From: an uncultured Dongia sp.
GTDB lineage: Bacteria > Pseudomonadota > Alphaproteobacteria > Dongiales > Dongiaceae
Assembly (NCBI GenBank): GCA_936916975.1
Contig: CAKZGO010000012.1
Location: forward strand, 1,775 to 65,774
Length of the DNA: 64,000 nt
Direction of reading: 5' to 3'
Shown: one piece after another, positions 10,460 to 54,393 of the stretch
How the letters are laid out: every line of letters begins with the position of its first letter
Numbering within the stretch: the first letter of the stretch is position 1
Made by a program: the position numbers and the translations under genes
The notes under the pieces: model-generated
Database searches by the model: none
Told to the model about the DNA's origin: nothing
Seen by the model: only the letters and a program-made list of their open reading frames with translations

Positions 10460-13400
10460 TTAGTCGACGTCGATCGTGTTCTGGATATAGAGCGTGGCCG
10501 TCCCTGACGTGTATTTGAGGAAGGTGATGTAATCACTTGTGGCACCAGTCGGATCGACGATGCTCACCTGGCCGTTCTGGTTCCAGACGCCATCCAGATA
10601 AACCTTGTCGTCGAGGCCCGGACCCGCCTCGCCATCGCCACGGCCCAGGATGTAGAGCGTGTCATTGGCATCGGTCATGTCGATGACGTCCTGGGCGCTG
10701 AGGCCGTTATCGCCATCGGTATGATTGCCGAAATTGGCGGGGGCGCCGGACGTGCGCAGATCGAAGGCCTCGACGTCGTGGATGCGGCCGACGAAGTCCG
10801 CGCCACTGTGGTCGAGGTCGACATTGGCCAACGAGAACTTCTCGAAGCGCACCGTGTCAAAATCGAGACCGCCTTGCAGTATGTCGCTGGGGCCAAAAAC
10901 CAGCCAATCATTGCCGCCGCCGCCATCGAGCATGTCAGTGACGGGGAAGCCCGGATCGCGACCGCCATAGAGAATATCGTCACCGCCACTGCCGCTGAGT
11001 GTCTCGCCAAACTCGTTGCCGATGATGATATCGCCGTTGTGGGTGCCGGTGACCTGGTTGTTGTCGAAGGCGACGTTATAGGTCAGGACATAATCCACCA
11101 ATGTCCCGCCCTGGTCCGAATGCCCCACTTCATCGGTCACAGTGTAGGTGAAGAGAGAGTCGGGGAAGGGATACGAGTTGGCGCCGGGGTTGAGCCCTTG
11201 CGGATTGAGATCGAATTCGACGTGACTAGACACGGCGGAGACGTGGAGGGTATTGCCCGGGGATTGGGCGTTGAGTATGTCCAGCAGGTATTTGTGATCG
11301 TCGATATCGTTGCGCACCAGCCAGTCCGTGGGGATGCTCATAAACTGTGTCTCGCTGGTGATAAGCCAGTCGTTGACGGCCGTTACGGGCATGTCCGTGC
11401 GCAAGGCGACGGCAAAGGTGGCGCTGTCGGTGCTGCCGTCGGCATCCTTGATCGTGTAACTGAATTGATGCGTCGTCGGCACGGGGAGATTGTTCGGCTG
11501 TTCGAAGAACCAGCTGCCGTCGCTGTTCACTGTCAGCTTGCCGCCGGTCACGTCGATGCTGAGGCTGGCGCCGCTCATTAGGTAATCGGTGCCGTTGAAG
11601 GTCACTTTGGTGACCTGGCCCGGGCCATCGGCGCCGAACTCGTCATTGGCGGTGAGGGCATTGGTCACGAACGTCCCGGTCTGGGTAATGGCGTAGGTGC
11701 CGTCATCCACCGCATCCGGGCCAGCATCCTCCACCCGCACCGACATGTTGGCGGTCGCCGTGGCCTGGGCGCTGTCGCCATCGCCATCGGTCGCGGTCTG
11801 GGTGACATGGATCGGCAGGCTGAGGTATTTGAAACTGTCCTGCTCGCCGGTATGGTCGATGCTGCGCTGCAGATCGAACTTGACCGCTTGGGCACCGAGC
11901 GACACCACGAAGACGAGCTCGCCGCCGATCGCGGTCCGGCCTTCGATCGTGTTGGCATCGACCTGATGCAGCTTGATGAATTCGCCGGAAGCGGCATCCT
12001 TGTAAGTCGTGACCGTATCCGCCAACGGTTGTCCGTCGATCCCGGTCAAGCTGTAGCTGACAGTGCCCGGACCATCGGCGCCATAGTTCACCGGATGGAA
12101 CATCCAGCTATAGCCTTCGGTATCGTCGGTGGCCGGCGTGGCCTCATCAACCACGAATGAGACACCGCTGGTGCTGTTCTGCGTCTCCGGCCCGTCGTCA
12201 TCGATGACGAAGCCGATATCGTCGAGCCGCGTATCGCCGTCGCCATCGGTATAGCTGACACCAAAGCGGAGATAGATGTTGTCCTCGGTGTCAATGCCAT
12301 GATGGTCGAGCGGCTGGATCTGGGTGAAGGTATACGTACCTGTCACCTGGTCGATTGTGAGGGTCATCACCGGATTGTTGCTGTTGTCGGCGATCACCAG
12401 TTCGGTGGCGCTTGAGCTCAGGACTTTGAGCGCGGAACCGGCCGTCGTTTCCAGCGGGTTGCCGGCACCCCAGTAATTTGCACCGATCGCGGTGCCGGGG
12501 GCGATGATCGCCAGACCATAGGGCAGTTCGCCCGGACCATCGGCGCCGAAGATCGCCGAAAGATGGCCTTTCCCGACATTGGTCGCGATGACCGAGCCCG
12601 GACTGACGTTGAAGAACGGATCGTCGCCGTTGGTGTCCCAGTTCGAATTGCCCTGGGCATCCTTGTCTTGGTTGCCGTTGCCGACAAAGTCCTCATCGAT
12701 CCACTGATAGACCTCGGAATTCTCGATCAAGCCGGGGCCGGCGTGACCCCAGCCCCATTGCTTGATGAAGTCGTCGTCGATCGACATGGTAAGGGTATGC
12801 GAGGGCGCGCCGCCGCCATTGGTCGCGGTCACCGTGACAGGCAGCAGGACATTGTCCTCGAAGTAGGTCTCGGCATTCTGGGTCTGCGGGTTGTCCTGGG
12901 CCGGATGCTTGATCGGGCTGAACAGCTCTACCTCATAGACCGCCGTCGCATTGTCGATGACGTTGAATTCCAGCACCTTGTCGCTGTTGCCGGGCTCGCC
13001 GGCCCAGACGGTGACATGGCCGGTGCCGTTGCCCTCGACATTGGCCAGTGTCAGCACAGTGCCGTCGAGCAGCACGATCTTGGCGATCTGCACCTCGTCG
13101 AAAGTGAAGGTGATGGCGCCGACATCCCCGTTCCAGTTGAAGCCGTTGCCCAGCGTGTTGCGGAACACGGCTTCGGTCGCCGGATCGGGCAGATTGTTGA
13201 CCTGGTGGCCGCCAACATCATCGCCTGGCGTGCCATCATTGGTCGGCGCTGCGGGGTCGTCATAACTGCCGTTCGGCAGGCCATCTTCGTCGATAATCGC
13301 GGTCTCGTCCTCGAATGTCGCAGGCTGGAAGTGCTTCAGCGTAAAGCTGAATTCGGCACTGTCGGTGTCGCCATCTGCATCCTGCGCGGTATAGGAGAAG

Positions 13401-16306
13401 GTGAAGGTTGGCAGGACCTCGCCATCCGTATTCTTCAACTGGGTAAAGGTCCAGTCGCCATTCGGCGAGATGCTGAGCGCGCCGATCGCCAGCTGCGGTG
13501 AGATCAGATGGCCAGCTTCGTCGAGATAGTAAGTGTAGCCGTTGCCGGTCTGCTCATAGACGGTGTTGTCAATATAGACGGATTTCACTGTAGCTGGCCG
13601 GTCGGCACCGACATTGTCATTGGCAAGAAGGTTGCCGCCAATACTCTGGTTGAGATGTTCGACGGTGAGCGTCGTCTCGTCATGGGCGACGATCATATCG
13701 TCATCGACATCGAACTTGACCGAGACGGTCTTGGTGTCGCCATCGGCATCGGTCACTGTGACGGGGACGTTGAACAGGATATCGCTCTCGGTATTCCCAT
13801 CGCCCAGGCCGCCGCCCGCCGCATCATGGCGCAAGGCCTGGTAGAGATTGAAGGCGATTTGGTTGCCGACGATGCTGATCGAGAACATCTTGTTGTCGTC
13901 GATCTGCTCGGCCTGCGAAATAACGCCGTCATTGTCGGCATCGGCATAACCGAACACGACCTGCCCATCGCCTGTGGCCACCAGCTTCACATTGGCGCCA
14001 TCGGAGGCGCGCTTCAAATCGCCGTCGATATTGCCGCTGACCGTGATGGTGGCGGGGTCGAGCGAGAGCGGGAAGGCACCGTTCGGACCGTCGGCGCCCA
14101 CATCGAAGGCCAGCGTCGCCAGAGCCTGGGTGCCGCCGATATCGTCGCTGGAGCGGGGATCGTTGTCGTTGTTGCCGCCGCCCAGCCAATCCTCGTCGAG
14201 ATAGCCGACGCCATCACCGTTGTTGGGCGAGCCTTCGTCGTCGGCATCATGGTCGTTTGTGTAGCCGACGAGGCTGATGGTGGGACCATCGTCGCGGATG
14301 GTGACGTCGAGCGGCGTTTCCACAAAATCGCCGTCGTAATCGGTGGCACGCACGATGATCGAGGCGCCCTCAGCGATCTGCAGGCCCAGGGTCGCTTCGT
14401 CGGCATCGGTGGTGTCGGCCTGGTTGACCTGATGCAGCTGGGTCAGGATGACCTGGCCGAGGCTGGGATCGATCGACAGCACGAAGACCGGGATCACCAG
14501 ATCGCCGTCCTCGGCATAGCCCTTGATCGTGTTGGCGTCGACCTGCTCGGCCTGGACCGCCAGTTCCACGCCATCCACTGTGATGGTCCAGTTGGTAAGG
14601 CCGCCGCTCAAAGGTGCCGCGGCATCGCCGATATAGAACTGGAAGGCATTGGCATAGGCGCCGTTGTCGCCGGCAAAGACGGTTTTGCCGGCTTCCTTGT
14701 TGCCGACATAGGCAATGGCCTGGCTGTCCCAGATGCCGGCGCGACCATCAGCGCCGAAGCTCACCGAAATAGAGGTGCTGGCGGCACCGATCGGCTGGGC
14801 ATCGGGCCAGCCGGCGGCGGCAAGTGCCTTGCCGATCTCGTAGCCATATTGTTGCGGATCGATATCCTCCGGCGCATCCTGGCCGGGAGTTTCGTCATGG
14901 ACGATGCCGGTGTCGCTGGGGGCCTTGGTGACCACAACGCTGCCTTTACCTTCGCCCTGTTCGACCCAGTCGTAATCCAGGTAGCCGAGCTCAGGCACGT
15001 CGTCGATGTCGGTGAAGACGACCGAGCCGGCAGGTGCTGGGGTCACCGAATTGTTGCTGTCCACCATGAAGAAGGGGACGTCGATGTCGAGGGCATCCAG
15101 AATGTTGCCATCGGCATCGTTGATGCCGGGGACATTGTCGACCACGCCATAGAGGGTGAAGTCGATGTCGAAACTGCTGATCGGGTCGGTGCCCTCGAAT
15201 TCACGGAAGCTGATGGTGAAGACCACCTCGACGACGGTATAGGGCTTGCCCTGGCCGTCATAGGTGACTTCGGTATAGGCGACCAACGTTTCGCCATGGC
15301 TGCCGGTGGCGCCAGGCAGAACGGCATACTTCACCTCTAGGCTATGGGACGTAAGGCCGAGGGCGGTGAGCTGGTCGATGATCGGCGTGCCGCCATTGCT
15401 GAAGCTCAAATGCCCCGGCACGTCGCCAAAGAAGTTCACCTGGGCGACGGCGGTACTGCTCAGCGGCTCGCGGTCCAGATCGACGCCTTCGGGCGACGGC
15501 TCCGGCAGGCTGGGCGCGTTCTGCGAGCCATCTTCATGGTCGTCAGCGTCAAAGGGATCGTTGCCCTGTTCCTCAGGTCCCGCCCAATAGACATTGGGCT
15601 GGCCGCCGATGAGTTTGCCGAGGGCGATCAGCACATGGGAGGGGTAGGGATCGAGTTCCTTGGCCGCCGAGAATTCTTCGTTACGTTCGAGGTCGTCTTC
15701 ATTGACGACCTGGCCAGGGGTGACGCTGACCAGCGTGGGCGACGTATTGATCTCGTCGTTTTCCTCCAGGCGGTCGAACGCGCGCTGGATCAAGCCGTAT
15801 TGCAGTTCCGTGGCGCTGAGGCCGCCCACGGCGTTGAGACCGCCGATGCCGGCATTGGGATCGAAAGGGGCAAAGAGGCCGCCATTGTTGTCGACGCCAC
15901 TGCCCTGGTCGCCGGCGGCGGGACCTGCCGCCGTCGCAATGTCGATCGAGGGATCTGTCGCCGCGACCACGCTCGCCACGTCGACCGTGGTTCCGTCTTT
16001 GTCGAGCAGGGTGACCGGGGCTTCCGCCGTGGCGGCGGTGTAACCCAGCAGAATGACCGTGACCTCGCCGACCTTCACGGCGAGGTTGCCGTTGCCATCG
16101 TCAAGGCGGGCCATCATCCCGTCCTGGGCGAAGGGCAGGGACAGGATCTCGCCCGGCGTCACCTGGATCCGGACGATTGATTCACCCGCCGCGATCTGGA
16201 TCTGGGTAGCGCTCTGGGTCGGAATTACCCGCTCCACATCGCTTTCATGAACGACCGGCGCCACATCAGCATTGTCGGAATGATTGAAATTGGCATCAGT
16301 CGCCAT
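10460..16306 (-). CDS. Giant (~1,948 aa) T1SS-type RTX repeat adhesin, LapA-like
   Basis: The ORF track gives 1,995 aa (to 16447). I prefer ATG 16304-16306, which has GGGGGAG 7 nt upstream. It contains many Ca-binding D.DGD-type repeat modules (VTDADGDT, AQDADGDTDS, YTDGDGDT, TDGDGDS, IKDADGSTDS). C-terminal RTX nonapeptides are present (GSGGDDILYGG, GGGGNDWLVFG), followed by an acidic secretion-signal-like tail. The N-terminal ~120 aa are followed by ATAAGP (nt 15923-15934). Confidence 0.85.
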   Translation of the reverse strand: MATDANFNHSDNADVAPVVHESDVERVIPTQSATQIQIAAGESIVRIQVTPGEILSLPFAQDGMMARLDDGNGNLAVKVGEVTVILLGYTAATAEAPVTLLDKDGTTVDVASVVAATDPSIDIATAAGPAAGDQGSGVDNNGGLFAPFDPNAGIGGLNAVGGLSATELQYGLIQRAFDRLEENDEINTSPTLVSVTPGQVVNEDDLERNEEFSAAKELDPYPSHVLIALGKLIGGQPNVYWAGPEEQGNDPFDADDHEDGSQNAPSLPEPSPEGVDLDREPLSSTAVAQVNFFGDVPGHLSFSNGGTPIIDQLTALGLTSHSLEVKYAVLPGATGSHGETLVAYTEVTYDGQGKPYTVVEVVFTISFREFEGTDPISSFDIDFTLYGVVDNVPGINDADGNILDALDIDVPFFMVDSNNSVTPAPAGSVVFTDIDDVPELGYLDYDWVEQGEGKGSVVVTKAPSDTGIVHDETPGQDAPEDIDPQQYGYEIGKALAAAGWPDAQPIGAASTSISVSFGADGRAGIWDSQAIAYVGNKEAGKTVFAGDNGAYANAFQFYIGDAAAPLSGGLTNWTITVDGVELAVQAEQVDANTIKGYAEDGDLVIPVFVLSIDPSLGQVILTQLHQVNQADTTDADEATLGLQIAEGASIIVRATDYDGDFVETPLDVTIRDDGPTISLVGYTNDHDADDEGSPNNGDGVGYLDEDWLGGGNNDNDPRSSDDIGGTQALATLAFDVGADGPNGAFPLSLDPATITVSGNIDGDLKRASDGANVKLVATGDGQVVFGYADADNDGVISQAEQIDDNKMFSISIVGNQIAFNLYQALRHDAAGGGLGDGNTESDILFNVPVTVTDADGDTKTVSVKFDVDDDMIVAHDETTLTVEHLNQSIGGNLLANDNVGADRPATVKSVYIDNTVYEQTGNGYTYYLDEAGHLISPQLAIGALSISPNGDWTFTQLKNTDGEVLPTFTFSYTAQDADGDTDSAEFSFTLKHFQPATFEDETAIIDEDGLPNGSYDDPAAPTNDGTPGDDVGGHQVNNLPDPATEAVFRNTLGNGFNWNGDVGAITFTFDEVQIAKIVLLDGTVLTLANVEGNGTGHVTVWAGEPGNSDKVLEFNVIDNATAVYEVELFSPIKHPAQDNPQTQNAETYFEDNVLLPVTVTATNGGGAPSHTLTMSIDDDFIKQWGWGHAGPGLIENSEVYQWIDEDFVGNGNQDKDAQGNSNWDTNGDDPFFNVSPGSVIATNVGKGHLSAIFGADGPGELPYGLAIIAPGTAIGANYWGAGNPLETTAGSALKVLSSSATELVIADNSNNPVMTLTIDQVTGTYTFTQIQPLDHHGIDTEDNIYLRFGVSYTDGDGDTRLDDIGFVIDDDGPETQNSTSGVSFVVDEATPATDDTEGYSWMFHPVNYGADGPGTVSYSLTGIDGQPLADTVTTYKDAASGEFIKLHQVDANTIEGRTAIGGELVFVVSLGAQAVKFDLQRSIDHTGEQDSFKYLSLPIHVTQTATDGDGDSAQATATANMSVRVEDAGPDAVDDGTYAITQTGTFVTNALTANDEFGADGPGQVTKVTFNGTDYLMSGASLSIDVTGGKLTVNSDGSWFFEQPNNLPVPTTHQFSYTIKDADGSTDSATFAVALRTDMPVTAVNDWLITSETQFMSIPTDWLVRNDIDDHKYLLDILNAQSPGNTLHVSAVSSHVEFDLNPQGLNPGANSYPFPDSLFTYTVTDEVGHSDQGGTLVDYVLTYNVAFDNNQVTGTHNGDIIIGNEFGETLSGSGGDDILYGGRDPGFPVTDMLDGGGGNDWLVFGPSDILQGGLDFDTVRFEKFSLANVDLDHSGADFVGRIHDVEAFDLRTSGAPANFGNHTDGDNGLSAQDVIDMTDANDTLYILGRGDGEAGPGLDDKVYLDGVWNQNGQVSIVDPTGATSDYITFLKYTSGTATLYIQNTIDVD

Positions 16307-17111
16307 ATCGCCGCTCCCCCAAATGGCAGATTTGAAATCGTGTTCAAATATGTAATTCGGGGAGTCGCGGCTTGCCCTGTTGTCGCGCCCAGCGTTGTTA
16401 CGCCCGGCAACGCGAATCCCCTGCCCCGGCGCAACTCTATGGTGCACCTATGTCGAGCACAATATATGTCTTACAAATGTAACCACACGATTTTATGAGC
16501 TAAGTCGCTTTCTCCGAAAATTTTAGAGAATTTTCCATTCGCTCAATATTCGCATGCGTTGTCGCCCAGCCGCAAATTGCGTCGCGCAGGCAAATTGACG
16601 ATTGCGGCAACGAGATTGTCGGCCGCGCTATCGAGCTCGGTACGGATGTCACGAAGTACAAGATCGGCGACCATATCGCCGTTGAGGACCTGGAATGTCG
16701 GTCCCGACGGCCGCGTCATATCGCTGGCGTGGCATTCCGGAAGAAGATGCGAACTTTTATGCTATTGATGTTTATGTACAAAACTCGACCAAACGGCAAA
16801 TAGCCGTCGCTTCCGCATCCTCAAAGTCGTCGATGACGTGAGCCGGGGAATGCCTGCCTGATACGTCGATCTCGGGGCAGCGCATGGCGCGGGAGTTGAC
16901 CGCGCTCATCGCCTTACCGAATCCGGCGACCAACGCCGCCATCCTGAAAGCCGCAAGGAACGCTGAAGCTGCGCGGGCTTATAGCTCCGCGCCAGAAAGC
17001 CCCTTGCTACCACCGCGCCAGACGGCGCATCAAACGACCAGATTCCAAAAGCGACTGGATGACGCTTCAGGGGCATTTTGGCGGCCTGCAAGTTTGGAGC
17101 ATGCATTGCTC

Positions 17112-20067: not shown

Positions 20068-20961
20068 ATGCAGCGCGACGAGCTAGATAGCCTGGCTTTG
20101 CTTCTCGTCGTGGCGGACGAGCAAAGCTTCACCAGAGCCGCGGCGAAGCTCGGGATATCGCAATCGGCGCTCAGCCATTCGGTTAGCCGCTTGGAGCAAA
20201 AGCTCGGCGTGCGGCTTCTCACAAGGACCACCCGCAGCATTGCGCCGACTGAGGCGGGCGAACAATTGCTGGCCACGCTGCGCCCCGCGATCGGCGAGAT
20301 ACGTGCCAAGCTCGCCGCCCTATCCGACTTTCGCGAACGTCCTGCCGGAACGATCCGCATCAGTACGCCCGAACACGCGGCCCGCACGATCCTATGGCCT
20401 GTGGCCGACCGACTGACGGCTGCTAATCCAGATCTCCATATCGAGTTGAACGTGGAGTCTGGATTCTCCGACATCGTGACCGAGCGTTTCGACGCTGGGG
20501 TTCGGCTCGGCGAGCGGATCGAGAAAGATATGATTGCGCTCCGGATCGGCCCGATGCTTCGCATGGCGGCCGTGGGCTCGCTTAGCTACTTCAAGCGGCG
20601 CGGAATCCCCAAGACACCGCACGATCTTGCACAGCATTCATGCATTAATCTCCGCCAGACAAGTTCGGGCGGCACATATGCGTGGGAATTCGAGAAAGAT
20701 GGGCGCGAGCTGAACGTGCGCGTTGAGGGCCAGCTTACATTCAACAGAGTGAGCCTGATGCTTGACGCGGCCGCGGCGGGACACGGCATCGCTTTAGTGA
20801 TGGAAGATCAAACGGCCGAGCTACTTAAGAGCGGCGCCCTAGTTCGGGTGCTCGAAGACTGGTGCGATGCTTTCGATGGCTACCACCTCTACTACCCCAG
20901 CCGACGCCAGCCCTCCGTCGCATTTCAGCTTTTGGTGGATGCACTGCGCTACAAGGGCTGA
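20068..20961 (+). CDS. LysR-family transcriptional regulator
   Basis: 297 aa with an N-terminal wHTH (FTRAAAKLGISQSALSHSVSRLEQKLGVRLLTRTTR) and a LysR substrate-binding domain. It is divergent from the AKR operon across a ~160-nt gap. Confidence 0.9.
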   Translation: MQRDELDSLALLLVVADEQSFTRAAAKLGISQSALSHSVSRLEQKLGVRLLTRTTRSIAPTEAGEQLLATLRPAIGEIRAKLAALSDFRERPAGTIRISTPEHAARTILWPVADRLTAANPDLHIELNVESGFSDIVTERFDAGVRLGERIEKDMIALRIGPMLRMAAVGSLSYFKRRGIPKTPHDLAQHSCINLRQTSSGGTYAWEFEKDGRELNVRVEGQLTFNRVSLMLDAAAAGHGIALVMEDQTAELLKSGALVRVLEDWCDAFDGYHLYYPSRRQPSVAFQLLVDALRYKG

Positions 20962-21127
20962 CGCGAACGTCACGCGCACCACATCGCTGGCTCGCAATCC
21001 AGCCGGCGTGAGCAACGAAATATCAACGGCTTAGATAGTGGCGTCCCCAACGGGAGTTGGCCGTTATCACGCGCTGCCAACGACGTCGATCCGGATCAAG
21101 ATATAGTTTGGAAAAGCAACATATTAA

Positions 21128-21391
21128 TCATTCCGACGGCTTCCGATCACTCAGCCCCATCTCCGGCGGCGACAGATCGAACTCAATCTTATTGGCCCGG
21201 CCGCCGCAGTCGCATTTGAGTTTGGCCAGGACTTCCTCGACGGTTCCGACCTTGCGCATCCTGGCCCAAAGTTGATTGCTCTTGGCGGACCCGCTCCAGA
21301 TGGCCGGCTTTCCGCAGCTGGCGCAGGTGATGGTGGTGTGCAGTAGCGTGCCTAGGCCGCGGCCGCGCCAGGGGTGTTTCGGGTCCGTCAT
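21128..21391 (-). CDS. Small Cys-rich hypothetical protein (CxxC...CxC)
   Basis: 87 aa with TCASCGKP...KCDCGG, suggesting a zinc ribbon. Its start overlaps the stop of the upstream ORF (ATGA). GC content matches the host and phage. Confidence 0.45.
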   Translation of the reverse strand: MTDPKHPWRGRGLGTLLHTTITCASCGKPAIWSGSAKSNQLWARMRKVGTVEEVLAKLKCDCGGRANKIEFDLSPPEMGLSDRKPSE

Positions 21392-21600
21392 TTCATTGGG
21401 GCCACCTCACCCCGGCGCCGGCTCTCCTCGATGGCCCAATCCGTGTGCTCATCGCAGTGCATGACGCCGAAGTGCGCCCAGGTCGCCGCAGTGCCGTAGA
21501 TGCCGGCGAGCGCGCAGCCGGGATATTGGCACGTCGTCGCCATCTCGGGCTCGCCGACGAAGTTGAGGGTGATCGGGCCGGGGGCGGAGGGGTCGGTCAT
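21388..21600 (-). CDS. Small Cys/His-rich hypothetical protein
   Basis: 70 aa with CQYPGC...HCDEH. It is translationally coupled to the 87-aa ORF, and both begin MTDP. Confidence 0.45.
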   Translation of the reverse strand: MTDPSAPGPITLNFVGEPEMATTCQYPGCALAGIYGTAATWAHFGVMHCDEHTDWAIEESRRRGEVAPMK

Positions 21601-21757
21601 GACGGCACAAATGGCTGTTCCATTCGCGGCACGATAATGAGAACATCAGCGGAACGTCAATGGGATGAAAGTCCGGTCGCCCCCGGGTTGGACTTAGCTC
21701 CAGTAAGGCCACTCCTGATATTTGCAATCGTCTGTGATAGGCTCAGCGCAATAAAAA

Positions 21758-22138
21758 GTGGGCAGGGGTGGGGCGGTGTTCACCAAGATTTCAAATCTAT
21801 GTCTAAGTATAGTGGTTTCCTTGGTCGTTCCATGCATCCCGCTAGTAGTGGAATTGGTTAAGAATCAACAGATTAAGCCGGAAACTACGTTTGTAACCGC
21901 CGCAGTAATGGCGGGCACATTTGGTGGTCTTGCTGAAAACAAACTTAATCGCAGCATCTATGCTATTCTCTTTCTGGTAACTCTTATCCTGTACGTTATA
22001 TCTACAGATGGCACGTCCCGGCCCATTGATGGTTACGCTAATCTCTTACTGTACGGCACTATGGTAACTCATTTCTTCGAGAGATTCTGGTGGCACATAG
22101 TTTTAGATAGAAGGTTCCCATCTCCGGAAAGAGATTGA
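21758..22138 (+). CDS. Small integral membrane protein (about 4 TM), no recognised family
   Basis: 126-aa ORF starting at GTG. An alternative GTG at 21776, preceded by AGGGGTGGGG, gives 120 aa. Four hydrophobic segments are present. The region is visibly AT-rich. Confidence 0.6.
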   Translation: MGRGGAVFTKISNLCLSIVVSLVVPCIPLVVELVKNQQIKPETTFVTAAVMAGTFGGLAENKLNRSIYAILFLVTLILYVISTDGTSRPIDGYANLLLYGTMVTHFFERFWWHIVLDRRFPSPERD

Positions 22139-22142
22139 GAAA

Positions 22143-22481
22143 ATGTTAGAATTTTGGCTCCCCTTCGCTGGTCTAATTGTCGCTCTGATTGGCGCATCAA
22201 TGAGCTTTATTCGGGCTGTCCGGGCGATTGCAGCTAAGAAAAGGATGCGTAGTCTCTTGGTTAAGCGGGCAGAGTACGACGCAAATTTCCGACTTCTTGC
22301 ACAACGCGCCATAAATGAAAAGCTCACGAATAGTGAAACAGAAGCTGTCGCGCGCGCCATTGAGTCTGTCGCGCAAAAGCAAATGTCTTTGCAAGAGAGA
22401 CGCCTTGTTGAGAGCGGGATAAATCAATCAAACAATCCCGGGCGGAAGCGTTATATCCGCGACCTTCTGTCAGCGGCCTAG
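22143..22481 (+). CDS. Membrane-anchored protein (one N-terminal TM helix plus a charged helical domain), no recognised family
   Basis: 112 aa with MLEFWLPFAGLIVALIGASMSFI followed by a Lys/Arg/Glu-rich helical region. It starts 4 nt after the preceding ORF and shares its low GC. Confidence 0.6.
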   Translation: MLEFWLPFAGLIVALIGASMSFIRAVRAIAAKKRMRSLLVKRAEYDANFRLLAQRAINEKLTNSETEAVARAIESVAQKQMSLQERRLVESGINQSNNPGRKRYIRDLLSAA

Positions 22482-22552
22482 TGCACGCGAAAGAGTTGGA
22501 AGTCGCAGTCGGCGAAATCCGTGTTCGACCATGAAGAAGAAATCCTGAAACG

Positions 22553-22590
22553 CAAAAAGACCCGCCCCAGCCGAGCTGGGGCGGGTCTTA
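22553..22590 (-). terminator. Rho-independent terminator ending the late/lysis operon (bidirectional geometry)
   Basis: 14-bp perfect stem AGACCCGCCCCAGC / GCTGGGGCGGGTCT (22558-22588) with a 3-nt loop. On the minus strand it is followed by TTTTT. It lies between convergent genes. Confidence 0.85.
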
Positions 22591-22640
22591 CGTTTGTAGC
22601 CGAGGGCCGATCATCTCGGCCGCTCGGTTGAGATCAGGCG

Positions 22641-22835
22641 TCAGGCACTTTCGTGCAGGATTGTGACAGCCGTATTGATCGCGCTGATCCGCTCTTTGGC
22701 ACCGTCCGGTCGACGACCATGGATGGTTTCCAGGCTCACGTTGCAGAATTCCTCGGTCGCGCTGACCTCAGTCACCACGGCGGGGATCATCACAACATCA
22801 CCTTTTTTGAGCGGCGTCCCGTTTTTATCATGCAT
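22641..22835 (-). CDS. Hypothetical phage protein (last gene of the late transcript)
   Basis: 64-aa ORF with balanced composition, followed by the strong terminator. Confidence 0.5.
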   Translation of the reverse strand: MHDKNGTPLKKGDVVMIPAVVTEVSATEEFCNVSLETIHGRRPDGAKERISAINTAVTILHESA

Positions 22836-22883
22836 CGCTATTCTCCTTGCTGAGGGTAGTACAACGTCAATCGACGCTGTTCG

Positions 22884-23021
22884 TTAGAACCGGAATATCC
22901 AAAAGGTCACTGTCGGGATGTTGATGCCGCCATCAGACGCAACGAACGGCATCAGTTCGGGCCGCGGCGACACTGGCACCTGACAGCCTGCCAGGAGCAG
23001 GGACAGCAGCAGCCAGCGCAT
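22884..23021 (-). CDS. Small (45 aa) lipoprotein, function unknown
   Basis: An internal ATG of the 65-aa track ORF gives MRWLLLSLLLAGCQVPVSPRPELMP.... It has a lipobox LAGC. Its ATG overlaps the stop of the preceding gene (TGATG at 23019-23023). Confidence 0.55.
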   Translation of the reverse strand: MRWLLLSLLLAGCQVPVSPRPELMPFVASDGGINIPTVTFWIFRF

Positions 23022-23371
23022 CACGGCGCCGGCATATCCTGCCTCTGCGTCGCTCGGATCGTGTCGAGCTTCGACCGGCAATCGATCAGGTCGCTCTGGT
23101 ACCGAATCATCGCGACGCCCTGAATGCCGATGATAAGATTGGCCCGCTGCGACGGCGGCACGGCCGGGTCATATTTCACCGCCTCGACCTGCGCCATGGC
23201 CGCAACCAGATCCGGGCCCGAGGGGCAATCCAGCAGCGCGCCATCGATCGGCGCGAAGGATACGACCTTTTCAACAGGCGCCGGCGGTGGCAGCACTTCC
23301 GGCTTCGCGAAGCTTTCGCAGGCACTCAAAATTGCGCAGAGCGATGTCAGCAGGATCAGCCTTCGGATCAT
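23021..23371 (-). CDS. Outer-membrane spanin subunit candidate (o-spanin lipoprotein)
   Basis: Internal start MIRRLILLTSLCAILSAC (lipobox LSAC), a Pro-rich mature N-terminus, 116 aa. It starts inside the 3' end of the i-spanin gene in another frame (overlap 23271-23371). Confidence 0.65.
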   Translation of the reverse strand: MIRRLILLTSLCAILSACESFAKPEVLPPPAPVEKVVSFAPIDGALLDCPSGPDLVAAMAQVEAVKYDPAVPPSQRANLIIGIQGVAMIRYQSDLIDCRSKLDTIRATQRQDMPAP

Positions 23372-23753
23372 GGGAGAGTTCCTTGATTTTCCGCTCGGCC
23401 TCGGCATAGACGGTCGCGCGGGCTTTGGACTGGGTGGCGAGATGCTCGGCATCGGCGCGGGTGCTGCGCCAGGCTGTGGTGAGTAAATCGATCTGACGGC
23501 TCTGCCCGTCGATCACGCGGGCCTGATCGCGGGCGCCAGCCGCCTGAGCTTTCGCGCTGGCTTCAAAGATGTCGCGCTCCACAGCAACGCCCTTCAGCTG
23601 GCCCTCCAGGCTGGTGATCTCCTTGCCCTGCCAGATCCAAGCGCCCGCCGCGGCGGCAAGACCCAGCGCCAGGCCGAGGCCGCCGCCAAGCACGGCCGGC
23701 AGAATCCATTTCTTGGCGGCGCGGTAGCCGAGGCCGGCGAGAATGTCGGTCAT
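23271..23753 (-). CDS. Inner-membrane spanin subunit candidate (i-spanin)
   Basis: 160 aa with an N-terminal TM helix (WILPAVLGGGLGLALGLAAAAGAWIW) and then a long coiled-coil-like Ala/Arg/Glu/Gln region. It sits downstream of the endolysin. Confidence 0.65.
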   Translation of the reverse strand: MTDILAGLGYRAAKKWILPAVLGGGLGLALGLAAAAGAWIWQGKEITSLEGQLKGVAVERDIFEASAKAQAAGARDQARVIDGQSRQIDLLTTAWRSTRADAEHLATQSKARATVYAEAERKIKELSHDPKADPADIALRNFECLRKLREAGSAATAGAC

Positions 23754-23947
23754 GTCTCGACCTTCTCAGGATGGGCCATGATCACCAGGCGCTGATCGGC
23801 CTCGATCATGAACGGCTCGGATTCGCCCGGGTTCATGAAGCGGAATGGAATGCCCGGCACGGCACTGCCGGCGATCGTCTCGGTGCGCACGATGCAGCGC
23901 GGCGACGTCTCCGGGATGTTGATCTCGACGCGGGTCGGGTCGGTCAT
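23750..23947 (-). CDS. Hypothetical 65-aa protein in the lysis cassette
   Basis: I take ATG 23945-23947 (MTDPTRVEINIPE...), which overlaps the upstream stop as ATGA. The N-terminal 77 aa of the track ORF are Arg/Ala/Gly-rich shadow sequence. Confidence 0.5.
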   Translation of the reverse strand: MTDPTRVEINIPETSPRCIVRTETIAGSAVPGIPFRFMNPGESEPFMIEADQRLVIMAHPEKVET

Positions 23948-24369
23948 GGCAGCAGCCCTCCCAGCGGCCCGGTGCCGACCTTCGCCAGCAGCTTCATGAT
24001 GTTGCCCTGCGCGTCGATCAGCAGCGGCCCGCAGGCCAGCTTGATCTCGTCCGACATGCCGCCTTCCCGGGCGCGGCGGATGTTGCGCAGCTTCTGATAC
24101 TTGGAGAGGACGCCCCTGCCCGGCGGTGAATCGGTCCCGCCGAGTTCCGGCAGGTTGTCGATGATGCCGCGCCAGCACTGCGCCGCGATGATGTCGCCAT
24201 GGGCTTCGGCATCGACCAGCGCGGCCTGTGCATCCTCGCGCGCGAACGTCACGAGTTCGTCGCCGACGTCGACGGAACCGATCTTGCCGTCACCGAGTTG
24301 CACGTCGCCGGTGCCAGATGCCGAACACGCCGCGAGCAACAGGCAGCACGCAAGGAGAAGCGACCTCAT
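23944..24369 (-). CDS. Lipoprotein, function unknown
   Basis: 141 aa with MRSLLLACCLLLAACSASG (lipobox LAAC). Confidence 0.6.
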   Translation of the reverse strand: MRSLLLACCLLLAACSASGTGDVQLGDGKIGSVDVGDELVTFAREDAQAALVDAEAHGDIIAAQCWRGIIDNLPELGGTDSPPGRGVLSKYQKLRNIRRAREGGMSDEIKLACGPLLIDAQGNIMKLLAKVGTGPLGGLLP

Positions 24370-24370
24370 G

Positions 24371-24493
24371 TCAATATTCCTTTGGGTTGCGGTCGGAACA
24401 CCAGATCACGACCAGGACGAAAATGATGAAAACGACCGCCGCACCGATCGCCGCGAAGATGTTGATCGTGGCGTTGATAACGGCATCGATCAC
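24371..24493 (-). CDS. Possible 40-aa single-TM protein
   Basis: A GTG at 24491-24493 overlaps the endolysin stop (GTGA). The product is (M)IDAVINATINIFAAIGAAVVFIIFVLVVIWCSDRNPKEY. The upstream part of the 88-aa track ORF overlaps the endolysin gene. Confidence 0.4.
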   Translation of the reverse strand: MIDAVINATINIFAAIGAAVVFIIFVLVVIWCSDRNPKEY

Positions 24494-25014
24494 CGCGGCG
24501 GGCCGGGCCGATGGTTGGGGCTGTACTCGATATCGAAGATGTAGCCGCGGCAGATGAACATCTCGATCGTCCGGCGCTTGACCAGTCCCCAGACGACCAC
24601 CAGCGCGCCGCCCCTGCCCTTGCGGGCCTTGTTCCATTTTGGCAACTCATGGCAGGCACCTAGCCAGTCGCCCTGGTTGGCAAGCTTGAGCAGCGTCGAT
24701 TTCATCAAGGCGCCTTCGCCAAAATTGTAGGTCCAGGACGTCACCGCCACCCATTGCCACAACGTCATGGCCGATTTGACGCGGCGGTCGACGGCCTCCC
24801 AATATTTCATCCCCTCTTCGCTCAGCAGGTCTTCGCACAGCTCACGGGGATAGAGTTTTCCGACGATGGCCTCCGGGCCAGTCTTGCCGTAGCAATAGGT
24901 GGGCACGCCGGCGATGTCGTTGTATCCGACCAGCCGCAATCCCTCGAACCCACCGAGGATCACCAGCAGGAACGCGAATGCCGCGCCCGCGGACTTGAGG
25001 CTATTGCGCGTCAA
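24490..25014 (-). CDS. SAR endolysin (GH24 T4/P21-type lysozyme with N-terminal signal-anchor-release helix)
   Basis: 174 aa with the weakly hydrophobic Gly/Ala-rich helix AGAAFAFLLVILGG. The catalytic E-x8-D-x5-T is present (FEGLRLVGYNDIAGVPT). The YN.G.G, STLL.K.NQGD and GL..RR..E blocks resemble P21 R. Confidence 0.88.
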   Translation of the reverse strand: MTRNSLKSAGAAFAFLLVILGGFEGLRLVGYNDIAGVPTYCYGKTGPEAIVGKLYPRELCEDLLSEEGMKYWEAVDRRVKSAMTLWQWVAVTSWTYNFGEGALMKSTLLKLANQGDWLGACHELPKWNKARKGRGGALVVVWGLVKRRTIEMFICRGYIFDIEYSPNHRPGPPR

Positions 25015-25301
25015 AGTTCCGGATCCCCAAGTTCTTTGACGCGGTCGCTTGCCCGGCGATTGAGCGCACCCTTACGGGCCAGCTTCCGCGCTTTGCGACG
25101 ATGCAGCGCGTCGATCGTCTTGGGGATCAGCAACAAGGATTGCCACGCCATGAACACAAAGGTCGCGGCAGCGGCCCATTCGCTGAAGGTCAGACCGGCT
25201 ATACGTACCTCGACACCCTGGGTGACCAGCGATGTGGTGACACCGCCAACGGCAATGCCGATCTTTCCCAACGACCCTTCGAAGAACTGCTGATTGCTCA
25301 C
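25011..25301 (-). CDS. Holin (two-TM, pinholin-like)
   Basis: 96 aa with two hydrophobic helices and a basic C-terminal tail (HRRKARKLARKG). It lies immediately upstream of, and overlaps, the SAR endolysin gene. Confidence 0.7.
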   Translation of the reverse strand: MSNQQFFEGSLGKIGIAVGGVTTSLVTQGVEVRIAGLTFSEWAAAATFVFMAWQSLLLIPKTIDALHRRKARKLARKGALNRRASDRVKELGDPEL

Positions 25302-25685
25302 TCAGACGCCCTCCCCAATCCAGCGTTTAAACCACTCCGTTGGCGCAAAGATCGTGACCGTCGCGCACCCGCCGTCGAACAGATCCGCGCGGGCCAATCC
25401 CTCTGCCTGCGACGGCGTCGAGATGATGGCGTAGTTGCCGACATAGGGTTTTCGTGGACCCCAGACCAACTCGCCATTGATCTTGTTGAGCAGGCGTCGA
25501 GCCTCGCCGCCCATGACGACGACCATTGAGGCGTTGACCTTGGCGGCGCGGATCTCGGCGATCACCGCGTCATGGCTGATACACAGCGCCGCACCACCAT
25601 CGACCTTGTCGATCGATTTGCCACGCGCGCCGGGACATATCCACGCCAGCAACATGACCAACAGAATGGCCGTGACGACTTTCAT
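25302..25685 (-). CDS. Secreted hypothetical protein
   Basis: I take ATG 25683-25685 (AGGGGA 4-5 nt upstream), giving MKVVTAILLVMLLAWICPGARG, a signal peptide. The product is 127 aa. Confidence 0.55.
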   Translation of the reverse strand: MKVVTAILLVMLLAWICPGARGKSIDKVDGGAALCISHDAVIAEIRAAKVNASMVVVMGGEARRLLNKINGELVWGPRKPYVGNYAIISTPSQAEGLARADLFDGGCATVTIFAPTEWFKRWIGEGV

Positions 25686-25695
25686 CTTTTCCCCT

Positions 25696-25720
25696 AAAGA
25701 AAAAGCCGCCAAAAGGCGGC
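25696..25720 (-). terminator. Intrinsic terminator-like hairpin between the tail genes and the lysis cassette
   Basis: The minus strand reads GCCGCC-TTTT-GGCGGC followed by TTTTTCTTT. Confidence 0.6.
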
Positions 25721-25746
25721 CTGTATTGGTGATGTGTCAGGTGCCG

Positions 25747-26535
25747 CTACAACGCTTCGGATATCTCGAACGCCCGCGCATGGGCCGGATGCGTCGTATG
25801 CTCGTTGGCGCCCAACTCACTCATCTGACCGATGATCATCTGCCGGTTCTGGCGCTCGCCACCCGGCGATTTGATGTAGAGAATATTGCCGCTGATGCCC
25901 GCCACGGCGTCGAGTTGGTCGCTGATGATCTCGACCACCTCATCCTCGCCCAGGAAGTTGAACTCGAATCGCTCGGCCCGGAACTTGTTGCGGATGTCGC
26001 TGTAATTCTGCCCGCCGATCGACTTCGATTTCTGCGTGGGATCGATGGTGATGTTCTGTGCGCCGTAACTGAAATTGCGCCGGGGTTGCCATAGATCCGC
26101 CAACCACAGATGCCCGATGTCGATCGAACCAACACCAACCCGGCCGCTATCCTCGAGATTGATCTTGATGTAGCGCGCTGTGACGATAGTCGGCAGCAGC
26201 AACAAGGCCTGCCAGCGCGCCTTGACGATCTCGGCCGGGTCCGCGGCAATCAAGCCGCTGTCATAGAGATCGCCGTCATGGGCATCGGTGGTTGAAAGCC
26301 GCAGCCGCCATTGCAGCGCGGCACTCACCTGGGCACCGGCTACTGCCATGACAGATACGGGCTGCGCGGCGCCCAGATCCGCGGTCACCTCAATACCGGT
26401 CGCGGCCTGCGTACGCCACACCGTCGCCCCGTGCAGATCCTTGATGTTGGACACCGGCAGCGTGGCAACTTCGCTGTTTGTCGCCAGGACCGCGGTCATC
26501 AAATGATTGACCCAGGCCAACCCCGCATTCGCCAT
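25747..26535 (-). CDS. Putative distal tail/host-recognition protein
   Basis: 262 aa, the last structural ORF of the tail module. Assigned by position only. Confidence 0.4.
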   Translation of the reverse strand: MANAGLAWVNHLMTAVLATNSEVATLPVSNIKDLHGATVWRTQAATGIEVTADLGAAQPVSVMAVAGAQVSAALQWRLRLSTTDAHDGDLYDSGLIAADPAEIVKARWQALLLLPTIVTARYIKINLEDSGRVGVGSIDIGHLWLADLWQPRRNFSYGAQNITIDPTQKSKSIGGQNYSDIRNKFRAERFEFNFLGEDEVVEIISDQLDAVAGISGNILYIKSPGGERQNRQMIIGQMSELGANEHTTHPAHARAFEISEAL

Positions 26536-26540
26536 CTATC

Positions 26541-28079
26541 TCACCACATCACGTCTAGGGTTGATTCGTTGCGGGCGGCCATGATCCCTTGCCCGATGAT
26601 GAACACGTTGCGGCCGCCCACAAGCGGTGCCACGGGAAGGTCGAGATTGATCGTTTCCCCCAGCTTCCGAAGGTAGCCTTGGGTCTTGGTGACAATGCGC
26701 AAGGCGCTGCGCCGCGTGCCCCACAACGCCCCCAGTCGGTTGACTTCGACCTGTGCATCCGCCTCATGCTGGAACAGCGACGGCATCGGTGGCGCATCCT
26801 GGGCCCGCAGATGGGTGGTCTGCACCACGGGGTCGGTCCAGGGCGCATAACGCCATTCGGCCGCCAGGAACTGCCGACGTTCTGCTGTGACACCACCCGC
26901 AAAGTCGCTGTCCTGCGGCGTCCAATTGTGCTCGTAACCGACCTGTGCCCGGTACCAGGGCGGATCGATCGAGGTGGGCAGATCGAACCACGTGTAATCG
27001 AGGACCTGGTTCGCGTTGAAATATGCCTTCGGCCGCAGCGCCGGCGCTTCCACCCGGCCACAATCGATCTGATCAAACCGGTTCGGACCCCACCATGCGC
27101 CAATGCCGGCGAACAAGACGTCCAGCACCGCCGCCACCGAGACCGTCTGGGAACCCACGAAGATCCCAACCGGCGCCGGTTGGTTGGATCGCAGCAGATC
27201 AAATGATGCCGGGTCAATATTGGAATCATCGAGGCCGCCGCGCAGGCTGATCAAGCGGAACGCGATGTCTGCCACTTTGTCGACATAGGTCCCGAAGCTG
27301 GCGTCGCCTTCGACATCGCAGGTGACCTTGCCGTCCGGTACCGCGCCGAGGCGAAAGTAACCGCCGGAGAGTTGCGTGACATAGGTACCAGCCGCCACCA
27401 CCGCGGCCGTGATATCGGCGACATCGCCGGCATAGGTCAACGCCAGACCGCGATCATAAACGGCGATGATGCGGCGCGTGGCCCCATCGTTCGCCTGGAA
27501 GATGAGCTGACTGGCGCTGACCAGTGTCGGCGTCACATTGAGACAGCCGCCATAGCAGAACGGCCGTGGCGCGCCCTTGATCTCCGGACCGCCATTCAGC
27601 CCCCCCGTACCGAGAAACAGATTGGTCTGTGCCGGTTTCTCCAGCCGCCAGGTGATATCGCGCAGTTCGAAACCGACATCGCGGCGGCCGGACGCCCGCC
27701 GCGACCGCGCCGTGCCCTTGAACAGTGTCGCAAAATCCGCATAGGCGAAGTCCGGCCGGCCGATCTTGATCTCGACATCCCGGCCGTCAATCGGGTAATC
27801 GCGCAGGAACCCGTCCAACCCGCCGTCGCCATTGACCAGCGCCATGCTGCCCAGCTGCAGAAGCACCCGCGACCCTGAGAACGGGTTGAGCGGCAGGCTG
27901 CGCTCGATCGTAAGCGGGTCCAGCACGCGCGGCGCGAAGTGCCGGTTCGGCAACGTCGCATCGACGGCAAGGGTGGTGAAGCCCCGGTCGCTGAAATGAA
28001 AGTCAACCGGGCCGGAGATCCCGGTCGCCGGCGGTACCGACAGAACCGGGCCACCATTGACCGGCAGGATCATCGTCAT
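26541..28079 (-). CDS. Putative tail tip/baseplate protein
   Basis: 512 aa within the tail module. The N-terminus (FSDRGFTT...NGDGGLD...DGRDV.IK.G) resembles N-termini of phage tail/host-specificity proteins as I recall them. Not verified. Confidence 0.5.
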   Translation of the reverse strand: MTMILPVNGGPVLSVPPATGISGPVDFHFSDRGFTTLAVDATLPNRHFAPRVLDPLTIERSLPLNPFSGSRVLLQLGSMALVNGDGGLDGFLRDYPIDGRDVEIKIGRPDFAYADFATLFKGTARSRRASGRRDVGFELRDITWRLEKPAQTNLFLGTGGLNGGPEIKGAPRPFCYGGCLNVTPTLVSASQLIFQANDGATRRIIAVYDRGLALTYAGDVADITAAVVAAGTYVTQLSGGYFRLGAVPDGKVTCDVEGDASFGTYVDKVADIAFRLISLRGGLDDSNIDPASFDLLRSNQPAPVGIFVGSQTVSVAAVLDVLFAGIGAWWGPNRFDQIDCGRVEAPALRPKAYFNANQVLDYTWFDLPTSIDPPWYRAQVGYEHNWTPQDSDFAGGVTAERRQFLAAEWRYAPWTDPVVQTTHLRAQDAPPMPSLFQHEADAQVEVNRLGALWGTRRSALRIVTKTQGYLRKLGETINLDLPVAPLVGGRNVFIIGQGIMAARNESTLDVMW

Positions 28080-50479: not shown

Positions 50480-50480
50480 G

Positions 50481-52756: not shown

Positions 52757-53283
52757 GCCTTCGTCCCCCGCCCGCGCCAGGACAGGCCCAGCTTGTAGCC
52801 GCGCGACTGCACCGCGCTGGCAGGTATGTCCATGATGCCGGCGATGTCGTGGATCGTGAACCCGTCGCCATGCAACTGCCGCAGCCAGGATTCGCGGGCC
52901 TCACCCCACTCGATATCCGGCCCGCGCTTTGGGGCGACGAGGTCCTTGACGATCCGGGGCTGGAGATCGTTCGCCGGGACATAGCTCGTCACCACGATGG
53001 ACCCCAGCCGCACGCGACTGCGGCCCTGCATGATATCGAGGGTGACGACCGATCCCGCCTTCAACGGCTCGTTGCGCCCCTGGTTCTCCGACGGGCGGTG
53101 CAGGATCGGTCGCGGTGCCGGGTCCTGGGTGGTGATGGAATACCAGCCCGCCAGCCAGCGCGCGCCGTCATGGCTCTCCGGGTCATAGGGGCACCAGGCG
53201 ATGACTTGCCCAGGCCGCCGCAGCCGCGCAGCCTGGACGCCCATCTGATGGGGGATATCGAGCAGGCGCGTGCTTACAGGCAT
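52753..53283 (-). CDS. Phage protein with C-terminal GcrA-like HTH
   Basis: 176 aa. The C-terminus WGEARESWLRQLHGDGFTIHDIAGIMDIPASAVQSRGYKLGLS follows the GcrA N-domain pattern W..E....L..L...G.S...IA......R.AV.GK..RLGL. Confidence 0.45.
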   Translation of the reverse strand: MPVSTRLLDIPHQMGVQAARLRRPGQVIAWCPYDPESHDGARWLAGWYSITTQDPAPRPILHRPSENQGRNEPLKAGSVVTLDIMQGRSRVRLGSIVVTSYVPANDLQPRIVKDLVAPKRGPDIEWGEARESWLRQLHGDGFTIHDIAGIMDIPASAVQSRGYKLGLSWRGRGTKA

Positions 53284-54367: not shown

Positions 54368-54393
54368 GCGGCGGGTGCTTGCAATCACACCAC

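Follow-up and report, generated by a model that had tools for sequence, protein, structure and literature searches.

A rare, conserved and horizontally mobile pair of membrane-protein genes beside the late operon of a prophage, and its possible role as a membrane-acting conflict module

The DNA analyzed in this study is a 64-kb stretch from an uncultured Dongia sp., referred to below as the window, which contains most of a prophage whose right end lies beyond position 64000. Two small open reading frames (ORFs) at positions 21758 to 22481, in what is plausibly the left end of this prophage, are the subject of this report. The first, ORF1 or gene 1 (21758..22138, + strand), encodes 126 amino acids (aa) from a GTG codon at 21758 or 120 aa from a GTG codon at 21776, and the second, ORF2 or gene 2 (22143..22481, + strand), encodes 112 aa from an ATG start. 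The two genes are separated by a gap of 4 nucleotides (nt). The - strand holds all late, tail and lysis genes of the prophage from 22641 upward, and the + strand pair is therefore convergent with them. The ORF listing bore out the original prediction, made from the letters of the sequence alone, of two + strand genes 4 nt apart that face the late and lysis genes. The analyses described below concluded that the two ORFs form a conserved, mobile two-gene module encoding membrane proteins.

The base composition of the pair differs sharply from that of its surroundings. Sliding-window analysis of guanine-plus-cytosine (GC) content in 200-nt windows gave values of 0.43-0.47 over 21700-22299, compared with 0.64-0.705 in the left flank (21200-21599) and 0.575-0.60 in the right flank (22500-22799). 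The window averages 61.0% GC, whereas the 724-nt stretch 21758-22481 has 47.4% (z = -4.45), the lowest value in the full 64 kb; only 0.35% of the same-size windows were equally low in GC, and all of these overlapped 21758-22481. The GC content at third codon positions (GC3) was 0.457 for ORF1 and 0.504 for ORF2, while the remaining scored chromosomal and phage genes had values of 0.64-0.87, the sole other exceptions being the genes of an islet at 58870-60039 (0.56-0.58). Relative to the surrounding phage genes, the pair has 47% versus 62% GC, and a GC3 of 0.46-0.50 versus 0.65-0.85 for the lysis and tail genes. The bias is seen in GC3, and it is therefore synonymous and not caused by hydrophobic amino-acid content. 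Both the sliding-window GC and the GC3 values agreed with the earlier claim that the pair is poor in GC relative to richer flanks, and the GC and codon-usage profile, when computed, does differ from that of the flanks.

Gene 1 was identified by ORF listing, HMMER and AlphaFold2 analyses as encoding a four-helix integral membrane protein of the phrog_22626 family. Its GTG codon at 21758 has no clear Shine-Dalgarno sequence, and the alternative start at 21776 is preceded by a GGGGTGGGG purine run. An exhaustive HMMER search over 1.84 billion representative proteins retrieved 70 relatives of ORF1 with an E-value threshold of 1e-3, and 29 remained when the threshold was set to 1e-10; identity was 35-42%, spanning residues 8-122. 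The family is rare, amounting to ~70 clusters at 50% identity among these representatives, and the clusters hold 1-5 sequences each, chiefly from short soil or peat metagenome contigs. In an alignment of 36 sequences of the ORF1 family (A1), residues P25, P28, E108, R109 and H113 are invariant and E32, Y68, H105 and W112 are near-invariant, and all of them are kept in the window protein. The C-terminal signature of A1 is H-x2-E-R-F-W-W-H-V-V-L-D-R-P-F-P, and the corresponding motif of the window ORF1 is H-FF-ERFWWHIVLDRRFP. The profile phrog_22626 (PHROGs v4) matched the window ORF1 with E=1e-4 (residues 10-115 on profile positions 11-122 of 133) and matched 33 of the 36 A1 members with a best E of 9e-13, the proteins being of similar size (~130 aa). 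This profile is unannotated and of unknown function, and membership in it tells only that some phage or prophage proteins belong to the family.

Structure prediction by AlphaFold2 with A1 as input gave a model of ORF1 with a predicted local distance difference test score (pLDDT) of 93.4 and a predicted template modeling score (pTM) of 0.84, in which helices span residues 3-36, 41-58, 62-82 and 88-115. The four hydrophobic helices expected from the original prediction were recovered in this model, two of them being strongly and two weakly hydrophobic. The distribution of positive charges favors a cytoplasmic location of both ends of the protein and is ambiguous for loop 1. Comparison of the model with PDB and BFVD by Foldseek yielded nothing with E<0.1, a sequence search of PDB with the ORF1 family profile gave nothing meaningful, no match to Pfam or NCBIfam was obtained for ORF1 or its relatives, and no likeness of the family to any transporter or enzyme fold was found.

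The product of gene 2 is a bitopic membrane protein, homologues of which are encoded 3' of gene-1 homologues. It consists of an N-terminal transmembrane (TM) helix (~residues 3-24), a basic juxtamembrane stretch, RAVRAIAAKKRMRSLLVKR, and an all-helical tail domain, the latter also appearing as all-helical in a single-sequence structure model of low confidence. The single N-terminal TM helix and helical domain described earlier were thus confirmed, with the basic juxtamembrane stretch as an additional feature. From the position of this basic stretch after the TM helix, the helical domain is probably cytoplasmic. The ORF2 family (A3, A4) shares this layout, with ALRAK-R-R as the juxtamembrane stretch between the N-terminal TM helix and the helical domain, and this domain ends in the motif G-[LI]-x-Q-x-[SN]-x-x-G-x-x-R-[YF]-[IV]-x-x-[LV]-L. 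Residues Q95 and R103 are invariant in the family and are both present in the window ORF2, and the gene-2 homologues of the fetched loci are 97-124 aa in length. Comparisons of the ORF2 family with Pfam, PHROGs, PADLOC, NCBIfam and PDB sequences gave nothing meaningful. ORF2 alone seemed to be an orphan, and its family was recognized because of the genomic context of the ORF1 homologues. The earlier statement that neither protein resembles a known family holds for curated families, but ORF1 belongs to phrog_22626 and its ~70 clusters, and ORF2 belongs to a co-conserved partner family.

A gene-2 homologue was located directly 3' of gene 1, on the same strand, in every intact gene-1 locus fetched (13/13, in addition to the window). 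These 13 loci (L087-L092, L094-L097, L100, L101 and L102) include the near-duplicates L090/L091, L092/L094 and L101/L102 and represent ~10 independent loci. The spacing between the two genes ranges from -8 to +22 nt across the loci, overlaps or tight gaps (-8, -4, +2, +4) being frequent, and translation of gene 2 is usually coupled to that of gene 1. Bradyrhizobium sp. USDA 4448 (L086) carries a copy of the pair that is decaying. Comparison of L090 with L091, which are orthologous and ~85% identical in DNA, gave ratios of nonsynonymous to synonymous substitution rates (dN/dS) of 0.153 for gene 1 and 0.156 for gene 2. Strict linkage and a dN/dS of ~0.15 therefore indicate a conserved two-gene module under purifying selection, and both ORFs are genuine genes that belong to conserved, strictly linked families.

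These data also bear on whether the ORFs might be chance open frames in an AT-rich non-coding spacer, as could be suggested by the start codon of ORF1, a GTG with no clear Shine-Dalgarno sequence, and by the metagenome gene calls made on window-identical DNA, in which ORF1 was missed in L001 (window 21686-24512) and both ORFs were missed in L002 (window 10068-30961). However, gene callers did annotate ORF1 in L005 and ORF2 in L001, full-length homologues with the family motifs are present at ~10 independent loci, dN/dS is 0.15, and the AlphaFold2 model is confident. Moreover, the open frame of ORF1 plus ORF2 extends over 251 codons on one strand, compared with 158 +/- 27 in dinucleotide shuffles, of which 3 in 1000 reached 251. 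A chance origin of the ORFs is thus vanishingly improbable, and a non-coding origin is effectively excluded. Low-GC cargo in a high-GC genome is dropped by gene callers, and ORF1 therefore had no self-match in a word-indexed protein search; this search, carried out with ORF1 and ORF2 as queries, returned ORF2 itself only, and exhaustive HMMER was needed to detect the ORF1 family. Loci L001-L005, which carry identical proteins, are from the same strain (99.95-100% identity), as is every other contig with this DNA, and they offer nothing for comparison.

The pair is bordered on its right by a hairpin (22557..22589) with a perfect 15-bp GC-rich stem and a 3-nt loop, the energy of which is -38 kcal/mol in a 71-nt context (z = -5.8). 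The hairpin is located 76 nt after the stop codon of gene 2 and 52 nt after that of the last late gene (22641-22835, - strand). It has a proper T-run for the - strand operon alone (TTTTTGCGTTT tail), the + strand tail being TTACGTTTGT. The hairpin is thus the canonical intrinsic terminator of the - strand late operon, and is at best a weaker one for the + strand pair. A shared, strong and bidirectional hairpin had been proposed; a strong hairpin is indeed present between the two units, but its bidirectionality was half right, as the T-run serves the - strand. On the other side, a 157-nt intergenic region (21601..21757) lies between gene 1 and a divergent 70-aa gene (21388-21600, - strand), and GC content drops from ~70% to ~45% within it, near 21690. 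The promoter of the cassette is presumed to be located in this region, in which the sole sigma-70-like site identified by a promoter consensus scan is on the - strand (21660-21631).

The late operon, which ends at 22641, includes - strand genes for a tape-measure protein (PF06791), a GH24 endolysin (PF00959; phrog_7, 6e-40), a candidate holin (25011-25301), overlapping i- and o-spanins, and small terminal genes. The proximity of the pair to this lysis cassette, and the fact that both of its products are small membrane proteins, could suggest an auxiliary role in lysis timing as an antiholin, a holin regulator or a second holin, and faint matches to holin PHROGs were obtained for ORF1 (phrog_1299, E=0.54) and for one gene-2 homologue (phrog_1350, E=0.0078). 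These matches are at chance level, however, the former being the best holin PHROG for ORF1, and no Pfam holin match was found; homology to holins or antiholins, which had been named as a finding that would speak against the original prediction, was therefore not detected. The pair is also on the opposite strand, is separated from the lysis genes by a terminator and differs from them in codon usage, and homologous pairs are found in loci that have neither an endolysin nor other phage genes. The absence of a match to any holin, antiholin or spanin family, the homologues without endolysin, and the presence in the prophage of its own - strand holin, endolysin and overlapping spanins led to the conclusion that the pair is not a lysis component. 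An auxiliary lysis-timing role is highly improbable, and a role in lysis is effectively excluded.

Comparison of the homologous loci indicated that the pair is mobile. The GC content of the pair was lower than that of the rest of the contig in all 12 loci computed, and its GC3 was below that of housekeeping neighbors at every locus having such neighbors, with values for pair versus neighbors of 0.30 versus 0.79 in L092, 0.54-0.62 versus 0.95 in L088, 0.61-0.68 versus 0.83-0.85 in L091, and 0.79-0.87 versus 0.91-0.94 in L100; in L087 and L097, the neighboring genes are low in GC3 too. The insertion sites differ and are mutually unrelated. The pair is located between pfkB and a gene for an outer-membrane protein in L090 and L091, adjoining CueR and CopA in L092 and L094, adjoining PlsC in L089, after cmk in L088, and between a GGDEF-EAL gene and MerR/IHF in L100. 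In L097 (1018-3418), it is accompanied by a PIN-domain gene, a 272-aa gene without a family match and an intact transposase gene of the insertion sequence (IS) IS1595, all of low GC3. In L086 (10001-11352), a 328-aa ORF joins gene 1 in frame with the C-terminal portion of an IS1595 transposase, gene 2 is without its TM helix (69 aa), and a ParE/ParD pair is located 1.2 kb downstream of the decaying cassette. A truncated remnant lies between IS5 and IS66 elements in L093, and in L101 (8443-10948, a forest-soil contig) and L102 the pair directly follows a small-terminase gene (PF03592), with an S24 repressor in the region. The pair is a horizontally mobile module of foreign composition.

Additional features were observed at some of these loci. 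The cassette in L101 also follows a gene for a low-GC 285-aa protein with an RNPLVH motif (Rx4H, putatively HEPN-like), and upstream of it are the S24 repressor and an Imm-NTF2-2 gene within an islet of low GC. The NCBI name of the L086 fusion, 'uncharacterized protein YkuJ', is apparently wrong. IS1595 is found beside the pair twice (L086 and L097), and IS1595-type elements may be movers of the pair. A convergent MerR-family regulator is encoded just downstream of the cassette in two unrelated loci (CueR-like with a copper ATPase in L092/L094, and near IHF in L100), which may be a coincidence or a functional hint.

The best explanation for these observations, to which a probability of roughly 0.4 is assigned, is that the pair is a membrane-acting conflict module, functioning either in phage exclusion or abortive infection or as a toxin-antitoxin-like addiction system. 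This explanation was derived from anatomy, mobility and neighborhood, not from homology, and it was suggested by the mobile and conflict-related neighbors of the pair: IS1595 and ParDE in L086, the PIN-domain gene and IS1595 in L097, IS5 and IS66 in L093, the small terminase and S24 repressor in L101, and the end of the late operon in the window. We infer not only this functional reading as a whole but also the topology of the proteins, the interaction between them and their expression in the lysogen, for which the following model is proposed.

The cassette would be a compact, self-contained and mobile two-gene inner-membrane unit. In the gene 1 protein, the conserved polar residues are predicted to gather at one face of the membrane, probably the cytoplasmic one; helix 2 contributes E/H from its end, helix 3 contributes R65 and Y68 from its start, and helix 4 contributes H105, E108, R109, W112 and H113 from its end, ahead of DRPFP. 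The helical domain of the gene 2 protein, with its end GLHQxSxxGxxRY, would be located at the same face as this cluster, and the shared face, together with the strict linkage and the frequent start-stop overlap of the genes, argues for a complex between the two proteins. The strong hairpin may insulate the cassette from the late operon, so that expression in a lysogen would be possible while the late genes are silent. The bitopic gene 2 protein would hold or gate the four-helix gene 1 protein. Once triggered, the gene 1 protein would disturb the inner membrane by ion leak or depolarization, or would block DNA entry. Such a logic would resemble that of lambda RexA/RexB or SieA but would be carried out by unrelated proteins.

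A more specific form of this model can be offered only tentatively and is regarded as doubtful, namely that the pair is the first example of a new, wholly membrane-embedded anti-phage or addiction system, in which a ~120-aa four-helix effector with a conserved H-x2-E-R-x-W-W-H site, located at the membrane face toward the cytoplasm, is gated by a ~112-aa bitopic sensor. With the same reserve, such a system may be unrelated to Rex, Kiwa, Zorya, Sie and the PADLOC systems, and may constitute an AT-rich islet moving between the chromosomes of alphaproteobacteria, islands rich in IS elements and the ends of prophages.

Closely related to the best explanation is that of a membrane toxin-antitoxin or addiction pair without an anti-phage role, in which one protein would harm the membrane and the other would neutralize it, so that loss of the pair would be penalized and the prophage end or islet stabilized. 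Consistent with such a pair are the small, co-oriented and often overlapping genes, their autonomy at unrelated sites, their foreign composition, the neighboring ParDE, PIN-domain gene and IS elements, and the joint damage to the two genes in the copy that is decaying in Bradyrhizobium. However, no known toxin or antitoxin domain was found, nor was a helix-turn-helix (HTH) or ribbon-helix-helix (RHH) antitoxin that could provide autoregulation; it is unusual for both members of a protein-protein toxin-antitoxin system to be membrane proteins, as they are here, and dN/dS is equally low in both genes, whereas antitoxins are often faster-evolving. A purely addictive role is considered unlikely.

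Several results weigh against the assignment of the pair as a membrane-acting conflict module. A search of PADLOC-DB 2.0 (5027 models) gave no match for ORF1 and a chance-level match only for ORF2 (E=0.0088, 13 bits), and the same search with 10 relatives of both families gave one chance-level match (PDLC01162, E=0.0032, 14.6 bits) and none for the others. The pair belongs to no Pfam or NCBIfam family and has no structural neighbor in PDB or BFVD. Profile comparison by hhalign gave a probability of 0.2% (E=0.25) for A1 against lambda RexB and of 0.1% for A3 against lambda RexA, and neither protein matched any PHROG annotated as superinfection exclusion. The exclusion or abortive-infection function suggested in the original prediction, which overall was partly supported, found no backing in these searches, as neither family has a PADLOC match or similarity to RexA/RexB. 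The promoter consensus scan upstream of gene 1 identified no + strand site, gene callers missed ORF1 or both ORFs as described above, and a search of sequencing runs found the locus in three small DNA runs only and in no RNA-seq run. In addition, many homologous loci are plain chromosomal neighborhoods, not prophages, one chromosomal site (L090/L091) is syntenic across two diverged genomes, and the L100 copy is largely ameliorated. Collections of 50,697 phage records and 72,556 plasmids yielded no family member, tblastn with ORF1, ORF2 and the family consensus giving nothing significant there, and neither did IMG/VR, where no relative could be confirmed by scans with alignment A2 and with the degenerate motif H..ER.WWH. 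Finally, a location of the pair inside the prophage, and with it the term 'prophage moron', is no more than plausible.

The plain sites, synteny and amelioration fit an ordinary accessory membrane function as well, and the main rival explanation is that the pair has a non-conflict role, such as ion or metal handling or envelope homeostasis, and constitutes a chromosomal islet that merely abuts the prophage. The His/Glu/Arg/Trp cluster of the gene 1 protein would then serve in binding or catalysis, with the bitopic protein as its subunit or regulator. The invariant E108, R109 and H113 and the near-invariant H105, W112 and Y68 do suggest a defined site and not a generic pore, most of the loci are ordinary chromosomal contexts, and a convergent MerR-family regulator lies directly downstream in two independent loci, one of them by a copper P-type ATPase. 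The stable synteny and purifying selection in L090/L091, the ameliorated copy in L100, and the absence of the family from the phage, plasmid and IMG/VR collections are also in agreement with such a function. On the other hand, insertion sites vary by genome and no functional partner recurs at them, the GC3 of the pair is foreign to almost all of its hosts, copies lie by IS elements, toxin-antitoxin, PIN-domain and phage genes, some of them decaying, and the family is extremely rare and patchy (clusters of 1-5 sequences), has members in a PHROG, and shows no likeness to transporter or enzyme folds. An accessory function of this kind is rated as rather unlikely.

The surroundings of the prophage end were also analyzed. 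A chromosomal LysR gene is located at 20068-20961, and the pair and two divergent small genes lie between it and the last late gene. These two genes (21128-21600, - strand) overlap, encode 87 aa and 70 aa, and have a GC content of 63-68% and a GC3 of 0.80-0.87. Their products both begin with MTDP and carry Cys/His-rich zinc-ribbon-like motifs, and no relatives of either were found in Pfam, PHROGs, NCBIfam or IMG/VR. A location of the pair at the left end of the prophage is plausible. A search for transfer RNA genes found none, no repeat of >=13 nt was shared with 50000-64000, and the repeats resembling attachment (att) sites or flanking the cassette were chance matches only. Searches for related phages, by blastn of 21000-26600 against phages and by IMG/VR scans with the i-spanin, a 262-aa protein, the endolysin and the 87-aa and 70-aa proteins, gave no match and no confirmed relative, respectively. 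A genome scan with the flanking LysR protein yielded 80 loci with identity of <=72%, none of which carried the pair, and no empty site was found. Contig breaks near 21682-21686 were considered as a signal of the junction and were rejected, as another assembly is continuous there at even depth. The anatomy would suit a moron that sits where the late operon ends distally, and the data agree just as well with an independent islet of the chromosome adjoining attL; that the pair is prophage cargo specifically is considered less probable than the conflict function itself.

Elsewhere in the prophage, a CI-like repressor (57743-58873; HTH_3 and Peptidase_S24) is encoded ~35 kb from the pair, and genes for a 639-aa C5 cytosine DNA methylase (54603-56522, - strand) and a GapR-like DNA-binding protein (62576-62899, + strand) are also present. 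Just to the right of the repressor gene is the second low-GC islet (58870-60039, - strand; GC3 0.56-0.58), whose products are a multi-TM protein of 143 aa that has a zinc ribbon at its C-terminus and a secreted protein of 233 aa with a VasI-like domain (PF11319, E=4e-6), and which looks like another moron, located at the immunity region. The spanin genes (23021-23753, - strand) encode a 160-aa i-spanin with an N-terminal TM helix and a 102-aa lipoprotein (lipobox LSAC), the gene for which starts inside the 3' end of the i-spanin gene; no PHROG or Pfam match was found for either. On the chromosomal side, a giant 1995-aa DUF5801/Big_9 repeat protein is encoded at 10460-16447 (- strand).

If the pair protects lysogens or acts as a membrane toxin-antitoxin system, it would represent a minimal defense or addiction architecture of ~240 aa in total, in which both components are membrane proteins that are missed by current defense-finding tools, and it would offer a conserved polar site. 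Even with no function assigned, two skipped 'hypothetical' ORFs become a two-family module with diagnostic motifs and with evidence for linkage, selection and mobility. In conclusion, the pair is a rare, conserved and uncharacterized membrane gene pair, and its candidacy as a new system is reasonable but unproven.

Among known systems, type II toxin-antitoxin modules are similar to the pair in consisting of two small, adjacent, co-oriented and often overlapping genes that behave as an autonomous unit at different sites, but neither of the families described here has a toxin or antitoxin domain in Pfam or NCBIfam or a DNA-binding antitoxin. Holin/antiholin pairs are likewise small membrane proteins adjoining an endolysin and spanin cassette; in contrast to them, the pair is encoded on the opposite strand with foreign codon usage, has no significant match to such proteins, and has homologues in loci without lysis genes.

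Prophage-borne, phage-excluding membrane proteins are an established class that includes RexAB-type systems (PMC12894663) and P22 SieA (PMC10883804). In RexAB-type prophage exclusion, RexB is a protein of 144 aa, and the RexB-type protein is a membrane-damaging effector (PMC12894663). The pair resembles RexAB as a two-gene, prophage-associated module with a small four-TM inner-membrane protein, in possibly being expressed in the lysogen independently of the late genes, and in the proposed logic of a regulator or sensor combined with a membrane effector. It differs in that RexA is a 279-aa soluble DNA-binding protein while the partner here is a 112-aa membrane-anchored helical protein, in that the gene order is reversed, with the membrane protein first, and in its location at the end of the late operon, ~35 kb from the CI-like repressor gene, whereas the Rex genes lie in the immunity region beside the repressor gene and are transcribed together with it. 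SieA of P22 is a small inner-membrane protein of a resident phage that blocks an incoming phage at the membrane, and is similar in size class and location. Imm and Sp of phage T4 are also small inner-membrane superinfection-exclusion proteins of the resident phage. Unlike SieA, Imm and Sp, the pair consists of two strictly co-inherited proteins, and most of its family members are found outside phages.

Defense hotspots in prophages (PMC9122126) and the moron concept (PMC3594210) have been described previously. The pair resembles the cargo of such hotspots in P2 and P4 and morons such as lom and bor of lambda in being an insert of deviant composition, putatively with its own termination, that lies distally in a late operon region and next to the presumed attachment junction.

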